A stretch of DNA of 15,669 nucleotides from Candidatus Thorarchaeota archaeon (GTDB taxonomy: Archaea; Asgardarchaeota; Thorarchaeia; Thorarchaeales; Thorarchaeaceae), in NCBI GenBank assembly GCA_016839445.1, contig JAEOUG010000062.1:1-15669 (forward strand), in the 5' to 3' direction. Shown piece after piece: positions 3,201 to 15,669 of the stretch. How positions within the stretch are numbered: position 1 is the first letter of the stretch; each line of letters begins with the position of its first letter. The position numbers and the translations under genes were made by a program. The notes under the pieces are model-generated. The model saw only the letters and a list, made by a program, of their open reading frames with translations. It ran no database searches and had not been told where the DNA came from.

Positions 3201-4277
3201 GTGGGCAACATGCCTGAGACCGGTGAAGAGAAAGCTAAGAGAGTGACCTCAGTCCTATCGATATCACACGACAAGGACGTCGACGGTCTTGCATCAGCTG
3301 CCATCGTTTGGAGGTATGCCAATTCTAAGGGCCTCGACTACAACTCACTGCTGACTGATTACGGTGCATTTGAGCCCGCCTTCGGAAGCGCTGCGACGCG
3401 CCGTGATACGTTGATTATCATCACTGATCTCGGGATGGACGAGACTGTTCTGGATGTGGTCACTGCCGGCCTCGACCGCGCAGTCAAGCAGGGATGCAGA
3501 GTTGTCTGGCTTGATCATCACCACTGGTCAAAGAGGTCTATTGACGCAATACGGAATCTAGGAAACAACCCTGTTCTGAAAGTCAACCACGACTACTGCG
3601 CCGCAGAGATTACCCAGAAGGTTCTGATGCCGCGTGACGAGATAAGCAGAGAACTAGCGGAGATAGCGCATGACACCGACTTCAATCTCAGAGAGATCCA
3701 GGCAGCGAGCGCACTCACCGATGCAGTGTCTGTGATTCGGTTCAACGCAATTGACAGAAAGGAGGACGTCACCGAGGCACTCCGTCCAATGGTAGAACAT
3801 CTTGCCAAGGAGGGAGTCCCCGGAGTCTATGACCGAAACGCGGGTCGGTTCAAAGATGCACTGATTCAGAAGCGAGTGGAACACTACCGAAAGGAGAAGA
3901 TCAAGAAGATGAGAAAGGCCCTCTCTGGACACTGTGACCAAGAGATTCACGGTCGGCTCGTACGAGTGGTTGAGATACCAAGCGGCTTGACATCCACGGA
4001 CATGGGTACCTTCGCTGCAAAACAGGAGAACTTGCGTATTGAAGATGCGCAGATTCCGGTCGCAGATCTTCTCTTGATGCTGAGTCCCGGAGGCATGCTT
4101 GGAATACGGAGAGGTTCTGAACGTGTCCTGTGCAACTCTGTGGCCAAGCTCTTCAACGGAGGAGGACATCCCTATGCGGCAGGTGGGGAGTACGGGCTCT
4201 ACGAGGACTTCAGTGCAGTCTGCGACGACATCTTCCTTACTCTTTCGAAGGACATGTCCTGGCTAGCAGACTCCTAG
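3201..4277 (+). CDS. DHH/DHHA1-family phosphoesterase (NrnA/RecJ-like); start GTG 3201 or ATG 3210
   Basis: HDKDVDG (motif I), IITDLG (motif II), WLDHHH (DHH), D in HDTD (motif IV), and the C-terminal DHHA1 motif GGGHPYAAG. Confidence 0.9.
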   Translation: MGNMPETGEEKAKRVTSVLSISHDKDVDGLASAAIVWRYANSKGLDYNSLLTDYGAFEPAFGSAATRRDTLIIITDLGMDETVLDVVTAGLDRAVKQGCRVVWLDHHHWSKRSIDAIRNLGNNPVLKVNHDYCAAEITQKVLMPRDEISRELAEIAHDTDFNLREIQAASALTDAVSVIRFNAIDRKEDVTEALRPMVEHLAKEGVPGVYDRNAGRFKDALIQKRVEHYRKEKIKKMRKALSGHCDQEIHGRLVRVVEIPSGLTSTDMGTFAAKQENLRIEDAQIPVADLLLMLSPGGMLGIRRGSERVLCNSVAKLFNGGGHPYAAGGEYGLYEDFSAVCDDIFLTLSKDMSWLADS

Positions 4278-5236
4278 ACTGGCTCCTGTTTACTTACCAT
4301 GCTGGCGACCATCTCAATGACATCAGTGCCTGTTTCATAGAGCCTGTCAAAGGTCCTTATCGCGTCGTCAATCAGGCCTGGGTTGTCTTTTCTGTATACT
4401 AGGGCCGCCACATCCGATGACATTGCATGAGTCAGATACAACAACATCTTCTCGTCGTTCAGACTGACCATTCTGTACGTCTTGACTGGTTGGGAACCGA
4501 GTCTGAGCCCTAGATTCCCGGTTGCAAGTCCCTTGATGAAGTCCTTGCCTACAGTACTCACATGGTTCGCCATTAGCTTCAGGTCGGGAGCAGACCTCGA
4601 TTGAGGAATCAGCAGCCCAAGCACTTTGGTCCCATTGAAGGCAACCTGCATTATGGTATCTTCTGTGATTCCACTTGGTCCCAGTCCCTCCGCGATTGTG
4701 CTGAGGAATGCCAACACTCTGACAGTATCACCGGGTTTGGCGCAGTCTGCAATCTCACGAATAAGCGTCTGGCGCACGTTCTGAATTCCCTCAATCATAA
4801 TGGAGCTGTCCGATGTTCTTGTTCCACTCAGTTCGTTCGCCAGCATAATCGCCGTCTCTGAGCTATTGACACTCTTGAGACTCTCAAGATTCTGTCTGAC
4901 ATTTTCCTTCTCCTTCTTCAGACTCACCAGTTTCTCTTCGATCATTCGCTCCATGGTCTTTGCTAGTTCGCCCTCATTCAGGCTGAAGCGTTTCGGATGG
5001 TGGATCGCATCGACCTGAATTAGACCATCGCTCTCCAAGGCCTTAAGGCACCGGTAAATGTAGGCCTTTGTGAACGAGCTGTCCGCAAGCTCATTGATGT
5101 GCGACCTGAGATCACTGTAGATGGTATGAGTTCTGCCACCTTCTGTGGCCTGCACTACTGCTTGGAAGACCAAGAACTCATTCGACCCGGTGTCGAGACC
5201 TATAATCTCCAGAAGCCTCCGCTCGTTCTCCTTCAC
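4274..5236 (-). CDS. TrmB-like transcriptional regulator, paralog 3 (wHTH, coiled coil, PLD-like effector domain)
   Basis: wHTH TKAYIYRCLKALESDGLI followed by a coiled coil. The C-terminal TYRMVSLNDEKMLL...RKDNPGLIDDAIRTFD is shared with both upstream genes. GTG start overlaps the previous stop, with GGAGG upstream. Confidence 0.75.
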   Translation of the reverse strand: MKENERRLLEIIGLDTGSNEFLVFQAVVQATEGGRTHTIYSDLRSHINELADSSFTKAYIYRCLKALESDGLIQVDAIHHPKRFSLNEGELAKTMERMIEEKLVSLKKEKENVRQNLESLKSVNSSETAIMLANELSGTRTSDSSIMIEGIQNVRQTLIREIADCAKPGDTVRVLAFLSTIAEGLGPSGITEDTIMQVAFNGTKVLGLLIPQSRSAPDLKLMANHVSTVGKDFIKGLATGNLGLRLGSQPVKTYRMVSLNDEKMLLYLTHAMSSDVAALVYRKDNPGLIDDAIRTFDRLYETGTDVIEMVASMVSKQEPV

Positions 5237-6165
5237 TTGAACTTCCCTCCGTACTCATTGATGTCAACGCCCTCTTGGAAGTCCGCATCGAAGGTTTCTA
5301 TGGCGTTGTCTACGAGTTCCGGGTTCACTGATCTAGGGACCCATGTCGCAGAGAGGGGGTTCTCAGACAGGATGAGCACAATGCCTTCGTCATTCCGCCC
5401 CACGAACTGGTACGTGTTGTCTTTCCTATGCCTAACTCTGAATTCCGGATTGAATCCCGCTTCGAGGTAGGAGTTCGTTATTCTCTGGTATCCGGAGATT
5501 TTCGTCTTGGTCAGCTTCCGGTGCTCCAGAGCTCTGAACCTGACTCCCTTCTCCATTAGATGTCCAATCCTGTCAAGTCTCCTAGCTCTCACACCGTCAG
5601 GATGATCAATCCACTCAAGCGTGTATCTGACTGTGTCATTCCTCTTCAGGTTCCAGTATATTGTCTCGTCTATGAGTCGTAGGACATCCTCCAGCCCCTG
5701 TGCGAACCTTGGCTTCTCCGCTTGCCTCCCCCCAACTGCCATCGCTAGCAGAGCGCGGGCTAGGGCAGTTGCCTCAACTGAGCCTATGGCTGCAATGAAT
5801 CGATTCGTTTCCTCATCCCTAGCAAGGAGTTCTTTCACCTTCTCTTCGATACTCCTCTCTATTCCCACCTGAATCTGCTGAGGGTTGGAGCGATAGCGAT
5901 GACGTCTGCCATCCTCTTCTATCTCGATGAATCCTCTACTCTCAAGGTTGGAGAGACTCCTATAGATGAGGGGATCCTTTCCCTTTCGTCCTCCTTCCTC
6001 TATGGCCAGCTGCCCTCGTATGGTTTCGAAATCCACGAAGTCGTTTGGTTCTCTCTGGGCTTTCAACAACGCCGCGAGAACCGTCATATCCTTACTGCTT
6101 GCATCCAGACCTATGGCCTGGATGGTCTTCTCATATCTTGCACGCCTCAATGCCCTTCTCCCCAT
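5233..6165 (-). CDS. TrmB-like transcriptional regulator, paralog 2
   Basis: wHTH PLIYRSLSNLESRGFI and wing GRRHRY. C-terminal TYQFVGRNDEGIVLILSENPLSATW.PRSVNPELVDNAIETFD. Confidence 0.75.
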   Translation of the reverse strand: MGRRALRRARYEKTIQAIGLDASSKDMTVLAALLKAQREPNDFVDFETIRGQLAIEEGGRKGKDPLIYRSLSNLESRGFIEIEEDGRRHRYRSNPQQIQVGIERSIEEKVKELLARDEETNRFIAAIGSVEATALARALLAMAVGGRQAEKPRFAQGLEDVLRLIDETIYWNLKRNDTVRYTLEWIDHPDGVRARRLDRIGHLMEKGVRFRALEHRKLTKTKISGYQRITNSYLEAGFNPEFRVRHRKDNTYQFVGRNDEGIVLILSENPLSATWVPRSVNPELVDNAIETFDADFQEGVDINEYGGKFK

Positions 6166-6184
6166 CTTCCTTCATTCTGCCCAC

Positions 6185-7207
6185 TCACTCTCTGTCAAAG
6201 AGCCTGCTAATAGGTCCTCCGGGTTCACTTCCCAGTGCTGGCAGGTCCTCGGGTGTCAGTTCTAGGAATGATCTTGCTGAGTCCCATGACTTGTCAAATG
6301 ACGCGACTGCATTATCAATCAGGTCCGGATTGAAATCCCGAGTAATCCACGTAGCAGTAACAGGATCTTCTGCGATAATGAGAACCATGTTTTCGCGATT
6401 GAAGCTTACCTGATTGTAGGTCTTCTCTCCTGAGTAGAGCCTAACATCGAACCGCACACCCTCTTGCTTCAGCTTCACAATGCTCTGAAACAAGCCCTTC
6501 AGGGCATCAATGTTGAGGCGCGTGTCCATTGTATCCTCCATGCCGAACACATCGGTACTTACGAGATACCGGACATCAGCCCCTCTCTGCGCCGCTCTGA
6601 CGAATCTAATGGTTCTATCCTTGGTGAGTTCGTCAATGAATGGCCCCACCCACAGCACGGTTGCCCTGATCATGTCTCCCTCTTCAGCCACATCCAGCAT
6701 GTTGTAACGGAGCACGCGATGCAGTTCTTCCTTCCCTCGAATCACTCTTGAGCTAATCCTCTGTTCCTTACCCTGAACTTCCTCCGCAAGCTCCTGAGCC
6801 ATCTGGCCGCAGTCTATTCCTCCTATCATCTCCGCCGCTCTTCTCTGAGCCTCCCGCTCTTGCTCGATCTCTTTCATCTTCTGAGCCTTTGCTCTCTCGA
6901 ACCCCGCCATCAGGGTGTTGACATCTGCAATGTAGCGCTTCCTTCGACCATCAGGGTTCTCAAGCCGCACTAGCTGTGACTCGACCAGGTTCTTGAGCAC
7001 TCGATGAACCCACGCCTTCGTGATCTTGGTAGTTGGGTCTTCCTTCACGACCTGCTCGTAGATTTCGCCAAACTCTAACGCAATAGGCGGGTCCTTCTGA
7101 AGCCTCAGGATTGATTTGAGAACACTAAACAGGCGTGACTGCTGTCGCCCTGCTGTAGTCAAGCCGAATATCTCCAGTGCGGTCTTGAGGTCAATCTTCT
7201 TGCTCAA
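6185..7207 (-). CDS. TrmB-like transcriptional regulator, paralog 1
   Basis: wHTH TKAWVHRVLKNLVESQLV and wing GRRKRY, a coiled coil, then A..RGADVRYL and TYNQVSFNRENMVLIIAEDPVTATWITRDFNPDLIDNAVASFD. TTG start with a GGAGG SD-like motif upstream. Confidence 0.78.
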   Translation of the reverse strand: MSKKIDLKTALEIFGLTTAGRQQSRLFSVLKSILRLQKDPPIALEFGEIYEQVVKEDPTTKITKAWVHRVLKNLVESQLVRLENPDGRRKRYIADVNTLMAGFERAKAQKMKEIEQEREAQRRAAEMIGGIDCGQMAQELAEEVQGKEQRISSRVIRGKEELHRVLRYNMLDVAEEGDMIRATVLWVGPFIDELTKDRTIRFVRAAQRGADVRYLVSTDVFGMEDTMDTRLNIDALKGLFQSIVKLKQEGVRFDVRLYSGEKTYNQVSFNRENMVLIIAEDPVTATWITRDFNPDLIDNAVASFDKSWDSARSFLELTPEDLPALGSEPGGPISRLFDRE

Positions 7208-9717: not shown

Positions 9718-10113
9718 TTGCGTCTGCTGATGTTCCATGTAGAGAGCTTCTGGTTTCGCTTAGATGAGCTCGACGATGACTCCGGAAGCAGGCTGTCTGA
9801 TTCCATTCTTGTATGGATTCACTCCGAGTCGGAGGATGAGAAGAATGAATCAAACATCCTGAGAAAGATGGTGAAGAACATAAGGTGGCTAGCGAACAAG
9901 GTGGGCTGCACATCCATCATTCTGCACCCCTTCGCACATCTTGATGATGACAAGGCCGATCCCGAGTTCGCTTCTGGTCTAATCACTGAGACCGCCAAGC
10001 GGCTTATAGATAGAGAATACGCGGTGACGGTCGTTCCCTTTGGGCACTTCACCGAGTTCGAACTCCACGCAAAGGGTCCATCCTTGGGCAAGGTGTTCAA
10101 ACACATAACCTAG
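9718..10113 (+). CDS. Stand-alone archaeal-type threonyl-tRNA synthetase editing domain protein (Ser-tRNA(Thr) hydrolase-like, DTD-like fold)
   Basis: MRLLMFH, IILHPFAHL (cf. VYPYAHL), PFG.F.EF and AKGPSL (cf. CKGHPL). 131 aa, TTG start with GAGG upstream. Confidence 0.85.
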   Translation: MRLLMFHVESFWFRLDELDDDSGSRLSDSILVWIHSESEDEKNESNILRKMVKNIRWLANKVGCTSIILHPFAHLDDDKADPEFASGLITETAKRLIDREYAVTVVPFGHFTEFELHAKGPSLGKVFKHIT

Positions 10114-11600: not shown

Positions 11601-11632
11601 CAGGTCACTACGATTATAAGAACTCCATCCCG

Positions 11633-12076
11633 ATGAGCGATGATGTAGACTTGACCGACTTCAAGCGACTTGGCCTCGGTACAGACCTGGTGGAGATAGA
11701 ACGTTTCAGAAGCCTTGCTCCTGATGCGCCGTTCTACCAGAGAGTCTTCACTGAGTCAGAACGGCAGTACTGCATGGGGTTCCCAGATTCCGCCATTCAC
11801 TACGCTTCAACGTTTGCAGCCAAGGAGGCTGTACTCAAGTCACTCCCATCCACCGAACCCATCAGTCTGCGAAGCATCGAGATACTGAGAGACCAGCATG
11901 GGTCTCCCAAGGTGCGTCTGGCCTTCGATCATCGCTTTCGTTCTTTGGTGAGTATCACTCACACTGGCCACCATGCAGCAGCCGTCGCCATATCGCATCC
12001 TATCTCTGAATCTTCTGACACAGACCAGATGCGCAAACTACTAAACGGAGCGTTGTCCGAAATCCTTCCTGAGTGA
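11633..12076 (+). CDS. acpS: Holo-[acyl-carrier-protein] synthase (AcpS-type 4'-phosphopantetheinyl transferase)
   Basis: GLGTDLVEIERF, FTESE, FAAKEAVLKS, G.P and VSITH motifs. Start moved from 11555 to ATG 11633 to avoid the helicase overlap; TTG 11651 is also possible. TTATAA lies at 11614-11619. Confidence 0.9.
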   Translation: MSDDVDLTDFKRLGLGTDLVEIERFRSLAPDAPFYQRVFTESERQYCMGFPDSAIHYASTFAAKEAVLKSLPSTEPISLRSIEILRDQHGSPKVRLAFDHRFRSLVSITHTGHHAAAVAISHPISESSDTDQMRKLLNGALSEILPE

Positions 12077-12082
12077 GCCCCC

Positions 12083-13909
12083 ATGAGTCAACCGGGTGAA
12101 CAGTTAGAGCAGGTACTCAGCGGCGCCAGAGCGGATCCTAGCTATCTTAGTCTCTGGAGCGCCTACAAGAAGATCCAGTCACTTGGGCTCAAGTCACCGC
12201 GCGGAGAGGCGCTAAGGATTGCAGTCATCGGTTCCTCAACCCTCGAACCGCTTGCAGCATGCTTGGATGTCAAATGCCGGCTGGAAGGCCTAGCGGTAGA
12301 AACATTCGTAGGAGGCTTCAACACCTACAGACAGGAATCACTCGACACCAAGTCTGCGCTCTATTCTCACAAGCCCGACCTCGTCCTCCTCTCGGTCGAC
12401 GCTTGGTCTGTTCTGGACAAGCAGTTCATCGCAACCTTCGTCCGGATGACCCCAGAGGAGAAGGAGGCTGCTGTTCAACAGCTCGTGAACGATGTAGCGA
12501 CCATTGCTGAAGTCCTAGCCAATAACTCAACTGCCCTTGTCCTCGTAAACAACTTCATTGTACCGTTCTTCAGTCCCCTGGGCATCGTCGATAACAAGCA
12601 GGAGACTGGCCTGCGTCGCTTCTTCTCGGAAGCCAACTCTAGACTGATCAAGGGATTTACGGATAGCAACAGGGTGTTTGTTGTTGACTTGGAGGCCGTT
12701 GCTGGTGACTTCGGTAAATCGAGGACAGTGAACTGGAATACTTGGTATCGCGGCTCCGTGCCCTTTGGAGAGGAGTTCACCGTACGGGTTGCTGACGAGT
12801 ATCTTCGATATGTTCGCGCGCTGAAGGGGAAGTCAAAGAAGTGCATTGTCCTAGACCTTGACAACACCCTATGGGGTGGTATCATCGGTGAGGACGGTCT
12901 CGAAGGCATCAAGCTAGGGAACGCCTCGCCTGGAATTGAGTATGTTGACTTTCAACGCTATCTCCTGAGTCTATACAACCGTGGAGTCATCCTCGCTGTC
13001 TGCAGCAAGAACAACTACGACGACGCTATCAAGGTGTTCCGAGAGCACCCCTTCCAGGTGCTCAGAGAGGAACACTTCGCGGCTATGCGGATCAACTGGC
13101 AGAACAAAGTGGCGAATATTGCTGAGCTAGCTAAGGAGATTAACATCGGCACAGATAGTCTCGTCTTCATTGATGACAATCCCGTTGAGAGAGCGCAGGT
13201 TGCTCAGGCCTTTCCCGAAGTGCTTGTTCTAGACACACCAAAGAACCCACGGCTATATCGAGAAGCTCTGGAGGCGCTCAGCGTGTTTGATGTTCTTTCT
13301 CTCACAAAGGAAGATATGGCCCGGGGAGAGATGTACGCTGGCAAGAGGAAACGCGCTCAGTTGGAACAGAGTGCAACCTCAATTGAGGACTTCCTCAAGA
13401 CTCTTGATTTGAGGATTCAGGTCCGAGAGGTGAGCGACTTCGACACACCCCGTGTTGTCCAACTCATCGGCAAGACGAATCAGTTCAATCTCACAACGAG
13501 AAGATACACCGAGGCAGAGGTGGAGCATTTCCGCGAAAGCCCGGGCTCTGCCGTGTATAGCATGGCTGTTGCTGACAAGTTCGGCGATGAGGGAGTCGTC
13601 GGAGTTGCCATTGTGAAGAAGGAAAGTGAGGCTTGGCTCATTGACTCATTCCTGATGAGCTGCAGAGTCATAGGTCGCTCCGCAGAAACAGCACTTCTGG
13701 CGAAGATCGTTTCGGATGCTAGGCGGGAGAATGCCAAGCGCATCATCGGCGAGTACATCCCAACCAAGAAGAACCCCCCCGCTGAGGACCTCTATCAACG
13801 TCATGACTTCGCGGAGGCTTCTGGTGAGGGTAATGTCAAGTTATGGGAGCTCGACCTGCAAAAGAAGACGGTTGAAGTTCCTGAATGGATCGATCTGACA
13901 GAGGAATGA
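12083..13909 (+). CDS. fkbH: FkbH-family HAD-IIIC glyceryl transferase/phosphatase (long form with N-terminal extension)
   Basis: KCIVLDLDNTLWGG, CSKN, INWQNK, FIDDNPVER, KTNQFNLT, DKFGDEG and FLMSCRV (acyl-carrier Cys). Confidence 0.95.
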   Translation: MSQPGEQLEQVLSGARADPSYLSLWSAYKKIQSLGLKSPRGEALRIAVIGSSTLEPLAACLDVKCRLEGLAVETFVGGFNTYRQESLDTKSALYSHKPDLVLLSVDAWSVLDKQFIATFVRMTPEEKEAAVQQLVNDVATIAEVLANNSTALVLVNNFIVPFFSPLGIVDNKQETGLRRFFSEANSRLIKGFTDSNRVFVVDLEAVAGDFGKSRTVNWNTWYRGSVPFGEEFTVRVADEYLRYVRALKGKSKKCIVLDLDNTLWGGIIGEDGLEGIKLGNASPGIEYVDFQRYLLSLYNRGVILAVCSKNNYDDAIKVFREHPFQVLREEHFAAMRINWQNKVANIAELAKEINIGTDSLVFIDDNPVERAQVAQAFPEVLVLDTPKNPRLYREALEALSVFDVLSLTKEDMARGEMYAGKRKRAQLEQSATSIEDFLKTLDLRIQVREVSDFDTPRVVQLIGKTNQFNLTTRRYTEAEVEHFRESPGSAVYSMAVADKFGDEGVVGVAIVKKESEAWLIDSFLMSCRVIGRSAETALLAKIVSDARRENAKRIIGEYIPTKKNPPAEDLYQRHDFAEASGEGNVKLWELDLQKKTVEVPEWIDLTEE

Positions 13910-13913
13910 ACAC

Positions 13914-14153
13914 ATGAATGACATGGACGACAAGTTGCTGGATATTCTCTCCAAGGTTCTTCTTGTGGACAAGGAGGATATCACAGACGACATCAGACGA
14001 AAAGACCACGAGGCGTGGGATTCGATGGCTCATCTGATAATCATCAGTGAAATCGAGAATGCATTTGGCGTCTTCTTTGAGGATGAGGAAGTCGTTGATG
14101 TCTGGACTGTCGGTGACCTGAAGAGGGTTCTAGCAGAGAAGCACAGCGACTAG
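13914..14153 (+). CDS. Acyl carrier protein
   Basis: 79 aa and very acidic. WDSMAHL contains the phosphopantetheine Ser37 (14022-14024), followed by IENAFGV.F and TVGDL. Starts 4 nt after the fkbH stop. Confidence 0.92.
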   Translation: MNDMDDKLLDILSKVLLVDKEDITDDIRRKDHEAWDSMAHLIIISEIENAFGVFFEDEEVVDVWTVGDLKRVLAEKHSD

Positions 14154-14596
14154 ACATTCTTTGGTTCCAGCTTCTGAAGTACGCGTGCAGGGTTTCCGGC
14201 CACTAAGGTCAGGGGTGGCACGTCTTTACTGACAACAGAACCCGCTGCCACAATCGCTCCCTCTCCTATGGTGACTCCCGGCAGGATGATTGCTCCTGCG
14301 GCTAGCCAGGCTCCCTTACCAATCACCACTTTCTTTGGTCCCTCGTGGAATATCTGCCGCTTCTGGTGGTAGGGGCTGGCCCCTGAGTGTGCCATGATCT
14401 TGACACCCGGCCCTATGCTCGCCCAATCGTGTATCTCGATGAATTCTGGATACTCTCCGTCAATCAGCACTTGGAATCCCATGTAGACGCCCTTTCCTAT
14501 CTTGACTCCGCATCGTCTGTACACGCTAGCCCTAAACTGGTATCCGGGTGCAGACCAAGCCAGAACGCGCAAGAATCTGCCAAGCATCTTTCCCAT
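14150..14596 (-). CDS. Hexapeptide-repeat acyltransferase (maltose O-acetyltransferase-like)
   Basis: GVKIGKGVYMG, IMAH, VVIGKGAWLAAGAIILPGVTIGEGAIVAAGSVVSKDVP and AGNPAR. AAGGAGG SD-like motif upstream. Confidence 0.9.
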   Translation of the reverse strand: MGKMLGRFLRVLAWSAPGYQFRASVYRRCGVKIGKGVYMGFQVLIDGEYPEFIEIHDWASIGPGVKIMAHSGASPYHQKRQIFHEGPKKVVIGKGAWLAAGAIILPGVTIGEGAIVAAGSVVSKDVPPLTLVAGNPARVLQKLEPKNV

Positions 14597-14618: not shown

Positions 14619-15527
14619 CTATCCACGGCGCCATATCATTCTTCTCAGGTAGTCAGAGAATACCCAATTGTCGATGTCACCAGTCAGCAGGAGACAGAAT
14701 CCGTGGTCTGACTTCCAGCGCTTGTGTTTGCTCCAGTAGGTCACAGCCTCTCTGGGAGTGGGTATCCATCCGCCCATCTCCTGAGCATACTCTGCAAGCT
14801 CCCCAAGGCATGGCGCATACTCCTTCTGTCCCATCCTTATAGGGTGCAAGTCAAACATCACCACGCCTCCCGAGCTTGCGGTCTTCTTGACCTGTGTCTT
14901 CAGCGCGGCAGTCACTTCTTTTCGCCCCCAGCCTCTGCCATCGATCATTAGGTCGTCACTGAGTATGTTGAGCGGGATGAAGGTGGTGTCAAGACTACCA
15001 CTCTCCGACTCGACCCTGAAGAAGTGAGTCTTCTCTCGGTGTTCTTCCTGGTACCCGAAACCACCATCCCATAGGAGGCCGTTCTTGTCAATAATGCGGG
15101 GCATATCCTCAGTGTAGCGGTCGTAGGGTGCCCGAAAGCCGGATATGTCTATTCCAAGTTTCCGGTAGGTCTGGAGGCTGAGTGCAAGATCCCTCTCGCG
15201 TCCGGCTTCGCTCAGCATGGGGTATCTTACGTGGTTGTACCCGTGGCTGGCCACTTCGTGCCCTTCTCTTTCGATAGATCGAGCCAACTCAGGTTTCATC
15301 CGAGCGACGCTTGCCACTGTCGGAAACGCGAATTTGGCGTCCGAGGGTTCAAGTGCTGCAAAGACGTTCTCCAGGATTTCGTCAAATGATGTCCTGTGAA
15401 GTCTCCACATCCTGTACATCTGCCTCGGCGCTCTCGTCCCCCACCGCCGCTGTAGTTGACTGATGTACCTTAGGCCTGACATGAACCACCCACTCGGTTG
15501 AACCCGAATCTCGCCCATGGAGGTCAT
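14619..15527 (-). CDS. Polysaccharide deacetylase (CE4/NodB) family protein, apparently circularly permuted
   Basis: GHEVASHGYNH, GFRAPY and FDLHP. The motif-1-like LLLTGDID is at the C-terminus. Start may be 15527 or 15518. Confidence 0.85.
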   Translation of the reverse strand: MTSMGEIRVQPSGWFMSGLRYISQLQRRWGTRAPRQMYRMWRLHRTSFDEILENVFAALEPSDAKFAFPTVASVARMKPELARSIEREGHEVASHGYNHVRYPMLSEAGRERDLALSLQTYRKLGIDISGFRAPYDRYTEDMPRIIDKNGLLWDGGFGYQEEHREKTHFFRVESESGSLDTTFIPLNILSDDLMIDGRGWGRKEVTAALKTQVKKTASSGGVVMFDLHPIRMGQKEYAPCLGELAEYAQEMGGWIPTPREAVTYWSKHKRWKSDHGFCLLLTGDIDNWVFSDYLRRMIWRRG

Positions 15528-15589: not shown

Positions 15590-15669
15590 ATGATGAAGCT
15601 GAGCCACGTTGGTATCATCGTGAAGGACATTGAGAAGGGCATCAAGAACCATGAGGCCCTCTTTGGCTA
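15590..15669 (+). CDS. N-terminus of a VOC/glyoxalase family protein (methylmalonyl-CoA epimerase-like), 3' truncated by the window
   Basis: Not in the ORF track. Translates MMKLSHVGIIVKDIEKGIKNHEALFG, matching the VOC N-terminal pattern H(I/V)GI.V.D.E......LG. Confidence 0.8.
   Translation, partial: MMKLSHVGIIVKDIEKGIKNHEALFG

Follow-up and report, generated by a model that had tools for sequence, protein, structure and literature searches.

A removable six-gene cassette of Thorarchaeota combines an acyl carrier protein and its predicted activating and loading enzymes with a candidate sugar acyltransferase

One end of a Thorarchaeota contig (GenBank assembly GCA_016839445.1, contig JAEOUG010000062.1), the whole analyzed stretch of which (15,669 nucleotides) is referred to here as the window, carries a cassette of six genes. 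These encode an AcpS-type 4′-phosphopantetheinyl transferase (PPTase), an FkbH-like loader, a stand-alone acyl carrier protein (ACP), a short left-handed beta-helix (LbH; hexapeptide) acyltransferase, a divergent CE4 (NodB-fold) polysaccharide-deacetylase-like protein, and a VOC/glyoxalase-fold protein, and together they form an accessory unit which is gained and lost among related genomes. An earlier note on this DNA had described the first three genes as a self-contained operon; their tight array stands, but they are only part of a unit that extends to the LbH, CE4-like, and VOC genes. On balance, we favor a reading in which these three genes represent the donor half of the cassette, where glyceryl-S-ACP would be made and its acyl group passed to the sugar of a glycan.

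The AcpS gene (positions 11633 to 12076, with its ATG at 11633 and its stop at 12076; 147 amino acids [aa]), the FkbH gene (12083 to 13909, ATG at 12083; 608 aa), and the ACP gene (13914 to 14153, ATG at 13914; 79 aa) are co-oriented on the plus strand with gaps of 6 nucleotides (nt) between AcpS and FkbH and 4 nt between FkbH and ACP, and the positions, orientation, gaps, and intact key motifs of all three products are as the earlier note had claimed. The ACP gene is convergent with, and overlaps by 4 nt, the LbH gene (14150 to 14596, minus strand, 148 aa; PF00132, 54.7 bits), next to which lies the CE4-like gene (14619 to 15527, minus strand, 302 aa); because both are on the opposite strand, neither is co-transcribed with the AcpS-FkbH-ACP operon. 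The methylmalonyl-CoA-epimerase-like VOC gene (15590 to 15669, plus strand) is cut by the contig end after its first ~26 codons, this 3′-open frame matching the N terminus of a 160-aa VOC protein at locus L032, a full-length orthologue which scores 78.7 bits with PF13669 and whose best NCBIfam match, TIGR03081, is at 71.6 bits, under the cut-off of 114.95. Family-profile searches found no polyketide synthase (PKS), NRPS, or FAS gene in the window, bearing out an absence that had been claimed from the open reading frames, and likewise no glycosyltransferase gene.

By its family scores, the first product is a divergent AcpS, matching PF01648 (ACPS; 56.9 bits, cut-off 25, E = 2.6e-15) and TIGR00556 (56.8 bits, cut-off 45.35), lying below the housekeeping equivalog level (TIGR00516, 46.8 bits against a cut-off of 59.8) and far under the cut-offs of all PRK AcpS models, and retaining the GTD (residues 16 to 18) and FAAKEA (residues 61 to 66; FxxKE type) motifs with the metal-binding Asp. 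The loader matches the TIGR01686 FkbH domain over residues 252 to 577 (317.5 bits, cut-off 146.65, E = 9e-95), PF21211 FkbH_N (31.8 bits, cut-off 27), and TIGR01681 (76.2 bits), and it comprises an FkbH_N domain (~aa 45 to 238), a HAD-IIIC phosphatase domain (~252 to 400), and a C-terminal acyl-transfer domain containing Cys527, with aa 43 to 408 matching PDB 3slr (E = 1.1e-47). Its DLDNT and SCR motifs are found at residues 258 to 262 and 526 to 528, respectively. The catalytic motifs of HAD phosphatases are DxDxT, a Ser/Thr, a Lys, and DD, and in an alignment of 28 diverse homologues D258, D260, T262, S308, K342, D364, and D365 are invariant (28/28), as are S526, C527, and R528; in work on OzmB, a conserved cysteine of the C-terminal domain reportedly holds the acyl intermediate. 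The ACP passes the PF00550 PP-binding cut-off marginally (22.2 against 20.8 bits) and falls under the cut-offs of all NCBIfam ACP equivalogs, its attachment residue Ser37 being located within a W-D-S motif (residues 35 to 37) in which W35 is invariant and D36 and S37 are each kept in at least 90% of 20 aligned ACPs. The FkbH branch as a whole numbers 15,202 cluster representatives at E-values up to 0.001, from both bacteria and archaea. A second group of FkbH paralogues, of 30 to 35% identity, is present at loci L021 to L024, beside which tblastn found no ACP; the neighbors at L021 yielded no informative Pfam match. A 1.5-kb spacer at locus L015 gave no Pfam match in the one frame searched, with stops read as X.

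The unity of the cassette was assessed across 151 Asgard genomes, where all 18 holders of this FkbH also possess AcpS, an LbH orthologue (57 to 90% identity), and the CE4-like gene beside it. Conversely, FkbH, AcpS, LbH, and the CE4-like gene are all absent from 10 genomes of the same family (85 to 99% complete), and in each of the four cassette-free genomes examined (4/4) the site is empty, the helicase gene directly adjoining the 306-aa gene that in cassette holders comes after VOC, so that the VOC gene is missing along with the other five. Congener G015 bears a deletion scar, in which AcpS and CE4 persist as fragments and the VOC gene is intact. In G004, one contig stops after AcpS and the first 254 residues of FkbH, and the LbH, CE4, and VOC genes lie on another behind an unrelated gene, which represents either a contig break or a rearrangement; this genome was counted as ambiguous and not as a cassette holder. 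As the six genes are adjacent and one deletion suffices to remove them, their joint loss would be expected even without a shared function.

Within this genome (89.8% complete), the AcpS is the only match to PF01648 and the ACP the only match to PF00550, and PPTase presence tracks FkbH across the 151 Asgard genomes. The suggestion of a dedicated PPTase is thereby upheld: with no other PPTase in the host, the cassette supplies its own. Less of the premise that ACP systems are rare in archaea survives for the Asgard group, in which 41 of the 151 genomes encode a PPTase domain, many of them inside open frames of 3,200 to 3,660 aa, one of which was checked by Pfam and proved to be a megasynthase.

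Orthology of the LbH protein rests on pairwise identities of 81 to 89% among congeners, 66% in Bathyarchaeia, and 38 to 43% in Nitrososphaeria, with FkbH adjoining each time, and not on profile E-values; the LbH profile drew on both of the LbH genes present at the Thorarchaeota loci, and its E-values mix the two. With 31.2 bits to the LpxA model, against a cut-off of 226, the protein is not an LpxA/LpxD orthologue. Its nearest solved relatives are maltose/galactoside O-acetyltransferases (best E = 8e-19), which are acetyl-CoA-dependent sugar O-acetyltransferases and not acyl-ACP enzymes, an observation that stands against the proposed transfer from acyl-ACP. The predicted complex of an LbH trimer with the ACP scored 0.57 (best control, 0.00), a result classed as weak support, with contact agreement of at least 92% among runs and a partner pLDDT of at least 82. 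Among 80 solved complexes, 58 reached the mark for such a complex, as did 2 of 110 mismatched pairs; those that did so with scores of 0.60 or below were only 7 of the 80 solved complexes and both of the passing mismatches. Since structures of LpxA-ACP and LpxD-ACP complexes have been solved, the predicted pass may reflect memorization of known complexes by the predictor.

The CE4-like protein scores 45.2 bits with PF01522 (cut-off 23.1) and 26.8 with DUF2334. Canonical CE4 motifs include the Asp-Asp of motif 1, HxxxH, and RxPY. In the alignment H95, H99, R132, P134, and H228 are invariant, and the Asgard form has neither an alignable motif 1 acidic pair nor a counterpart of the N-terminal acidic motif seen in Nitrososphaeria and bacterial forms.

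Family scores and motifs make the formation of glyceryl-S-ACP the parsimonious chemistry for the donor half. From its family membership, AcpS would convert apo-ACP and CoA to holo-ACP. FkbH, as homology and motifs suggest, would take 1,3-bisphosphoglycerate (1,3-BPG), remove the 3-phosphate through its HAD domain, and carry the glycerate as a thioester on Cys527 before transferring it to holo-ACP. Two papers (PMC7489565, PMC3679948) describe this conversion of 1,3-BPG to glyceryl-S-ACP for FkbH with a stand-alone ACP. 1,3-BPG should be available, given that phosphoglycerate kinase is present in the genome; no such kinase was found near FkbH in the 80 related loci by blastp with this genome's enzyme as the query. 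Speculatively, the VOC protein may then invert or isomerize C2 of the thioester. The conserved linkage and the weak docking result suggest that LbH would take the C3 hydroxyacyl group from ACP and place it on a sugar of a surface or N-linked glycan, at a hydroxyl or amino group. Before this, the CE4-like protein may free the acceptor position of an acetyl group, a speculative role for a protein whose catalytic motif 1 is not recognizable. The only STT3 gene of this genome is located on another contig, away from the cassette.

Of the competing explanations, the one that survives best, while still unlikely in our estimation, holds that LbH and the CE4-like protein form an independent acetyl-CoA-based acetylation/deacetylation pair and that an enzyme encoded elsewhere passes the cargo of glyceryl-S-ACP to some other acceptor or small molecule. 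It draws on the closeness of LbH to the maltose/galactoside O-acetyltransferases, on the placement of its gene on the strand opposite the donor genes, and on genomes G082 and G130, which encode more distant LbH (46% identity) and CE4 (24 to 26%) proteins, adjacent in G082, but no FkbH or small AcpS, so that the pair can exist without the donor half; moreover, an MBOAT gene directly upstream of FkbH-ACP at the Nitrosopelagicus locus L064 indicates that other transferases can be the user. Against such independence, LbH, CE4, and the donor genes have stayed together through three gene orders (those of Asgard, Bathyarchaeia, and Nitrososphaeria) and share the same presence and absence in the 151 Asgard genomes, the LbH-ACP complex passes, albeit weakly, and in bacteria, too, 16 of 63 loci have an LbH gene no farther than 3.5 kb from FkbH.

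An acceptor of a different kind, in which a glycerol-ether lipid or a polyprenyl phosphate-linked intermediate would be O-acylated with the glycerate-derived group, is a still less probable alternative. The top NCBIfam match of both LbH proteins of the window is indeed heptaprenylglyceryl phosphate O-acetyltransferase, but at 77.5 and 60.3 bits these scores are far under the cut-off of 300. Similarly, all eight congeners examined (8/8) have a geranylgeranyl reductase gene 3 kb upstream, but none occurs around the cassette in Bathyarchaeia, Promethearchaeota, or Nitrososphaeria, and its linkage is consequently one of genus-level synteny only; the contexts outside Thorarchaeota are instead glycan loci or AglB.

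It is highly improbable that the three genes, as a minimal glyceryl-S-ACP module, supply a polyketide, tetronate, or nonribosomal peptide line encoded elsewhere. Published FkbH systems, as far as the accessible parts of the literature describe them, were all found in PKS/NRPS pathways, but the genome yielded no PP-binding domain besides that of this ACP, and its ketosynthase-model matches amount to four short, weak, thiolase-like ones within frames of 405 to 415 aa, matches of the same kind being present in 4/4 archaeal control genomes. Moreover, the window and the syntenic loci contain no FkbG/I/K-type dehydrogenase, methyltransferase, or FabH-like gene, and this FkbH bears an extra 240-aa N-terminal domain relative to the PKS-type BafAIV, of 367 aa.

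The notion that an archaeal bin has taken in a bacterial contaminant contig or a chimeric assembly, to which a bin contamination estimate of 6.45% and a contig of only 15.7 kb might lend color, has a negligible probability and is already refuted by a 20-kb gene order, from DHH to CE4 and including such archaeal markers as a free-standing archaeal ThrRS editing domain and the geranylgeranyl reductase, that is kept in all eight congeners fetched (8/8; contigs of up to 121 kb). The contig is native Thorarchaeota DNA and is not chimeric: its GC content (52.8%) fits the genome mean (52.7%), and public contigs from two studies, short and shallow as they are (depth, 3 to 6), bridge the AcpS-FkbH, FkbH-ACP, and ACP-LbH junctions, the helicase-AcpS junction also being bridged by one public contig from a run that may be the source sample. 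The best 120 FkbH homologues are at least 64% identical, are found on contigs of up to 3.16 Mb, including some labeled Thorarchaeota, and, where named, belong to Thorarchaeota, Promethearchaeota, or Odinarchaeota; the named loci at 67 to 68% FkbH identity are titled Thorarchaeota and Promethearchaeota. The Asgard host that had been suspected from the letters alone is thus corroborated.

The same gene set recurs in other gene orders in Promethearchaeota (L035), Bathyarchaeia (L034), and Nitrososphaeria (L039, L042, L064, and L069). STT3/AglB adjoins the cassette in both L034 and L035, and at L039 it is surrounded by a flippase-like gene and genes for GT2 and GT4 glycosyltransferases, a DegT aminotransferase, NDP-sugar dehydratases, and a nucleotidyltransferase. 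A survey of 80 related FkbH loci (15 archaeal, 2 CPR, and 63 other bacterial) placed an ACP no more than 1 kb away from FkbH in 74/80 loci, including 58/63 bacterial ones, and an AcpS within 1.5 kb in 10/15 archaeal and 2/2 CPR loci but only 2/63 other bacterial loci; in the Asgard holders, AcpS stands beside FkbH in 18/18. Recurrent bacterial neighbors of FkbH include glycosyltransferases, sulfotransferases, a MaoC dehydratase with an SDR, and LbH transferases. In the FkbH tree (LG+G4, with SH-aLRT as its only branch support), from which 3 of the 80 rows with called ORFs of less than 480 aa were omitted, all 15 named archaeal rows, the CPR rows, and some other bacteria fall on one side of a supported split; the tree is rootless, its midpoint root gives no direction, and the earlier proposal of a probable acquisition from bacteria therefore does not follow from it. 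We tentatively envisage, as a possibility that falls somewhat short of probable, a portable ACP acylation system common to Asgard, Bathyarchaeia, Nitrososphaeria, DPANN, and CPR, equipped with its own PPTase and placing a glyceroyl group that derives from glycolysis, possibly epimerized, on AglB-dependent N-glycans or other surface glycans.

Among characterized systems, the FkbH/OzmB/Mad7 synthases of methoxymalonyl-ACP (FK520 and bafilomycin) and of the tetronate glycerate operons resemble the cassette in TIGR01686 score, the HAD DxDxT motif, the C-terminal Cys, and a dedicated small ACP immediately downstream, and the expected chemistry would be the one that the cited papers (PMC7489565, PMC3679948) describe. 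In contrast to them, the cassette has its own AcpS, an archaeal host, and LbH, CE4-like, and VOC partners, and PKS genes, FkbI/FkbK-type dehydrogenases, an O-methyltransferase, and a FabH-like enzyme are absent from the window and the syntenic loci; its 608-aa FkbH also exceeds BafAIV (367 aa) by the ~240-aa FkbH_N domain.

A second parallel is the LpxC/LpxD logic of lipid A, in which a deacetylase acts before an acyl-ACP-dependent LbH N-acyltransferase. The cassette similarly pairs deacetylase-like and LbH genes with an ACP-borne donor, the LbH-ACP docking being of the weak grade given above, but its deacetylase is CE4-like and not LpxC, and the acyl group would be a C3 hydroxy acid and not a fatty acid. 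As regards the maltose/galactoside O-acetyltransferases (PDB 2ic7, 1kqa, and 3hjj; E = 8e-19 to 1e-16 over residues 30 to 144), LbH is ~35 to 60 residues shorter than these chains of 182 to 207 aa, its residue 30 aligning to their residues ~74 to 78 and leaving their N-terminal region without a counterpart; it scores far under the NCBIfam cut-offs (66 against 314) and is encoded beside an ACP system, not alone. The bacterial glycan-locus FkbH-ACP-LbH modules, whose only solved relative is PDB 3slr (BF1531 of Bacteroides fragilis), have the same three-domain loader and recurrent LbH, VOC, MaoC/SDR, and glycosyltransferase neighbors. Archaeal and CPR versions differ from them in adding AcpS, and the Thorarchaeota cassette lies outside any glycan locus, flanked by the helicase gene and the 306-aa gene noted above.

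To our knowledge, acyl carrier proteins are usually said to be missing from archaea, and FkbH enzymes are known only from antibiotic pathways; a literature search of limited coverage yielded no paper that connects FkbH with archaea or with glycans. In the present case, an ACP, the enzyme predicted to activate it, and a loader constitute what looks like a working unit in the Asgard group, to which the closest known relatives of eukaryotes belong, and an FkbH branch of thousands of sequences is placed in glycan-type contexts. If the proposed glycan acylation is correct, the cassette would represent the first archaeal pathway to depend on an ACP and have a defined physiological role, as well as a previously undescribed route to glyceroyl sugars, and possession of its own PPTase would let it work in hosts without ACP machinery. 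Being small and self-sufficient, and carried by some close relatives but not by others, the cassette comes with natural controls.

The donor half of the cassette comprises three forward-strand genes, namely those for the 4'-phosphopantetheinyl transferase (PPTase) AcpS (from the ATG at 11633 to 12076; 147 amino acids [aa]; PF01648, 56.9 bits, cutoff 25; TIGR00556, 56.8 bits, cutoff 45.35), the FkbH-like loader (12083 to 13909; 608 aa; TIGR01686, 317.5 bits, cutoff 146.65, E value 9e-95), in which family models also recognized a core of the HAD-IIIC type and an FkbH_N domain, and the ACP (13914 to 14153; 79 aa; PF00550 PP-binding, 22.2 bits, cutoff 20.8). Spacers of 6 nt (AcpS-FkbH) and 4 nt (FkbH-ACP) separate these genes. 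In an alignment of 28 diverse homologues, the HAD residues D258, D260, T262, S308, K342, D364, and D365 and the C-terminal Cys527 of FkbH were invariant, as was W35 among 20 ACPs, in which D36 and S37 were nearly so. Open reading frames, family scores, and sequence reading are thus in agreement with the earlier note, which had described three co-oriented genes with 6- and 4-nt gaps and intact key motifs. A TTATAA box (11614 to 11619), located 14 nt 5' of the AcpS start codon within the 32-nt spacer behind the helicase gene, is a possible candidate for an archaeal TATA element. The ACP of an otherwise intact cassette in a Promethearchaeota MAG (locus L033, 9822 to 10058) harbors W-D-A in place of W-D-S, by which the attachment serine is replaced; the change could stem from faulty sequencing or mark a nonfunctional carrier.

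Convergent with the ACP gene, and overlapping it by 4 nt, is the gene for a left-handed beta-helix (LbH; hexapeptide-repeat) acyltransferase (14150 to 14596, reverse strand; 148 aa), directly beyond which lies that of a CE4-like deacetylase (14619 to 15527, reverse strand), while the final 80 nt before the contig end hold the first approximately 26 codons of a VOC (glyoxalase-fold) gene, matching the N terminus of the 160-aa VOC protein encoded at the same position in relatives. FkbH, AcpS, LbH, and CE4 were sought in 151 Asgard genomes, including that of the window. Main-type FkbH was present in 18, representing 15 genomes of the window's family (its own included) and 3 of the 7 genomes from another family, and all 18 possessed a small AcpS gene on the same contig within about 1 kb of FkbH, together with an LbH orthologue (57 to 90% identity) and a CE4-like gene (40 to 63% identity). 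Ten genomes of the window's family, which are 85 to 99% complete, yielded no match for FkbH, AcpS, LbH, or CE4; in all four of these that were inspected, immediately after the helicase gene comes a 306-aa gene which normally lies behind VOC, indicating that all six genes are gone as a single block. A deletion scar was evident in the congener G015 (locus L119, 1588 to 2089; contig C7), in which an AcpS fragment (residues 13 to 68) abuts a CE4 fragment (residues 21 to 146), the latter with an in-frame TAG within the genome-search match, followed by an intact VOC gene. In genome G004, one contig (L123, 1 to 1451) ends with AcpS and the codons for FkbH residues 1 to 254, and LbH, CE4, and VOC are encoded on another (L124, 2394 to 3586), behind an unrelated 302-aa amidohydrolase-like gene where the ACP would be expected, an ambiguous arrangement explained either by a break in the assembly or by rearrangement. 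The unit is a real, conserved accessory cassette of six genes, VOC included. The three genes formerly viewed as a self-contained operon are indeed adjacent, but the empty sites and the G015 scar define a larger unit which also takes in LbH, CE4, and VOC.

The window constitutes the entire contig C22 of a 2.91-Mb bin (190 contigs, 89.8% complete, 6.45% contamination), and its GC content is 52.8%, against a genome mean of 52.7% (standard deviation, 0.8). It also encodes geranylgeranyl reductase, pyruvate:ferredoxin oxidoreductase subunits, and, as a separate 131-aa gene (9718 to 10113, forward strand; PF08915, 113.5 bits), a free-standing archaeal-type threonyl-tRNA-synthetase editing domain. 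The best 120 FkbH homologues listed share at least 64% identity and lie on contigs of up to 3.16 Mb, those with names being labeled Thorarchaeota or, in a few cases, Promethearchaeota or Odinarchaeota. The order DHH, three paralogues, reductase, LbH-287, editing domain, helicase, AcpS, FkbH, ACP, LbH-148, CE4 is the same in eight of eight congener loci (all of the same-genus loci taken with long flanks), and an FkbH domain scored above the cutoff in 16 of 24 same-genus genomes. The AcpS-FkbH, FkbH-ACP, and ACP-LbH junctions are spanned by public contigs from two studies, and the helicase-AcpS junction is spanned in one run, which may be the source sample. Chimeric assembly or bacterial contamination is, for practical purposes, ruled out by GC content, archaeal genes, homologues, congener synteny, and bridging contigs, and the Asgard host previously presumed is confirmed by the archaeal genes of the window, the labels of the best-listed homologues, and the uniform synteny. 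Elsewhere in the window (4274 to 7207, reverse strand) are three paralogous genes in tandem (320, 310, and 340 aa; mutual tblastn identity, 21 to 28%), which are kept in congeners and of which only the 310-aa gene gave Pfam matches (TrmB helix-turn-helix and DUF6293_C, both below cutoff). The interval between the editing domain and the helicase, 50 nt in the window, measures 1.5 to 1.9 kb in six of the eight congeners (L014 to L017, L019, and L020); the L015 stretch, scanned in one frame read through with X at stops, returned no Pfam match.

The PP-binding and PPTase models each had one match in the window's genome, both inside the cassette, and the ketosynthase model returned only four short, weak matches in frames of 405 to 415 aa, comparable matches being present in all four archaeal control genomes. 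Linkage was tabulated with our own profiles for 80 related loci from named genomes. An ACP gene lay within 1 kb of FkbH in 74 of these (14 of 15 archaeal, both CPR bacterial, and 58 of 63 other bacterial loci), whereas AcpS lay within 1.5 kb in 10 archaeal loci, in both CPR loci, and in 2 of the other bacterial loci; several of the archaeal loci lacking AcpS end at contig ends. Fatty acid synthesis is commonly missing from CPR bacteria. The difference in AcpS linkage between archaea and CPR on the one hand and other bacteria on the other fits a PPTase which accompanies the module in hosts that have no other. The proposal that the cassette carries a dedicated PPTase was, accordingly, upheld, both by this linkage and by the location of the genome's sole PPTase and PP-binding matches. 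In many Asgard genomes of other families, open frames of 3,200 to 3,660 aa end in a PPTase domain; the one scanned (L112, 3390 to 13937; G099, contig C1; 3,515 aa) harbors NMO-like, KS, AT, two PP-binding, KR, and C-terminal Sfp-type PPTase domains, from which it appears that ACP-based megasynthases are not rare in Asgard archaea. Some Asgard genomes also encode a second FkbH-like paralogue of about 610 aa (30 to 35% identity; loci L021 to L024 on G028:C38, G006:C47, G002:C10, and G014:C32), which has no adjoining ACP gene and is surrounded by housekeeping genes.

The earlier note had called for a survey and trees; linkage of AcpS and ACP was surveyed across the 80 loci, and an FkbH tree was built. 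The tree (quick maximum likelihood, LG+G4, SH-aLRT only, 81 rows, with rows below 480 aa left out) was drawn from the 80 top-scoring matches of a profile led by Thorarchaeota, a biased set, and its root is not fixed. A supported split (97) places all 15 archaeal rows from named genomes and the 4 further Thorarchaeota rows on one side, together with 14 bacterial rows, and leaves 48 bacterial rows on the other; Asgard archaea and Bathyarchaeia form one clade (99), and the AcpS-linked form occurs only on the archaea-containing side. Given this biased row set and the lack of a root, the tree lends no support to the suggestion that the module was probably acquired from bacteria. Locus L057, on a contig titled Acidiferrobacteraceae, is one of the two non-CPR bacterial loci with AcpS linkage; its FkbH nests in the marine Nitrososphaeria clade (support, 97) and its genes are arranged as in thaumarchaea (FkbH-ACP-MaoC-AcpS), the contig being either misbinned or the product of a recent transfer.

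The PPTase, loader, and carrier are, as read from sequence, intact, and the phosphoglycerate kinase encoded in the window's genome is the predicted source of 1,3-bisphosphoglycerate. By homology with the FkbH systems with ACP loading described in PMC7489565 and PMC3679948, AcpS would convert apo-ACP to holo-ACP, and FkbH would dephosphorylate its substrate and load glycerate, generating glyceryl-S-ACP. The chemistry originally put forward, glyceryl-S-ACP formation, is thus probably right, as predicted by homology and intact motifs. Linkage suggests that the LbH enzyme would transfer the acyl group from the ACP to a sugar residue of an N-linked or surface glycan; more speculatively, the VOC protein may epimerize the thioester and the CE4-like protein may free the acceptor position. 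The VOC protein matches glyoxalase I structures and, among NCBIfam models, scores best against methylmalonyl-CoA epimerase, with 71.6 bits, which falls short of the cutoff (114.95). The CE4-like protein retains two histidines, the RxP motif, and the late histidine; nothing in it corresponds to the acidic N-terminal motif of Nitrososphaeria and bacterial CE4 forms. A predicted complex of three LbH chains with the ACP scored 0.57 (best control, 0.00) and was graded as weak support. Of 80 solved complexes, 58 attained the mark, as did 2 of 110 mismatches; at scores of 0.60 or lower, it was attained by only 7 of the 80 solved complexes and by both passing mismatches. At least 92% of contacts agreed between runs, with a partner pLDDT of at least 82, and the passing score could reflect prior exposure of the predictor to known LbH-ACP structures.

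Against glycan acylation stand the closest solved relatives of the 148-aa LbH protein, maltose and galactoside O-acetyltransferases (E value, 8e-19), which use acetyl-CoA, the location of the LbH gene on the opposite strand, and the presence of distant LbH (46% identity) and CE4-like (24 to 26%) genes in two genomes of another Asgard family without FkbH or small AcpS, adjacent in one (G082, contig C55, 15121 to 16456) and on separate contigs in the other (G130). No glycosyltransferase was seen near the cassette in the window's genome, whose sole STT3 gene is on another contig. In favor of a glycan acceptor, an STT3/AglB oligosaccharyltransferase gene adjoins the cassette in the Bathyarchaeia locus, whose gene order equals that of Thorarchaeota, and in the Promethearchaeota locus, in which CE4, AcpS, FkbH, and ACP are codirectional and VOC and LbH then convergent. 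In four Nitrososphaeria loci, CE4 and LbH are divergent from FkbH-ACP; the ACP is visible in three (L039, L042, and L064), the fourth (L069) ending at a contig end, and is followed by MaoC in L039 and L064 and by AcpS in L039 and L042. The locus from Nitrosopumilales amounts to a full glycan locus, comprising a flippase-like gene, GT2, GT4, a DegT aminotransferase, an FkbM-type methyltransferase, two NDP-sugar dehydratase/epimerases, and a nucleotidyltransferase. Directly upstream of FkbH-ACP-MaoC in Nitrosopelagicus lies an MBOAT membrane O-acyltransferase gene (L064, 6448 to 7923), which suggests a Dlt-like route in that lineage. Among bacterial loci, an LbH transferase gene lies within 3.5 kb of FkbH in 16 of 63, further recurrent neighbors being a MaoC dehydratase with an SDR, VOC, glycosyltransferases, and sulfotransferases.

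A polyketide synthase partner was not found in any Pfam-scanned neighbor family or protein, and identity with a methoxymalonyl or tetronate cassette was rejected because the partner enzymes which define those are absent. Among the matches listed, literature on "FkbH-like" proteins concerned PKS/NRPS products throughout, and searches tying FkbH to archaea, polysaccharide, or glyceroyl, or ACP to Asgard archaea or Thorarchaeota, found nothing describing this cassette in the literature covered. Every available sequence test places the donor half among FkbH/ACP systems, and the cassette is predicted to represent FkbH-type loading by an archaeal system that has its own PPTase and operates outside polyketide synthesis.
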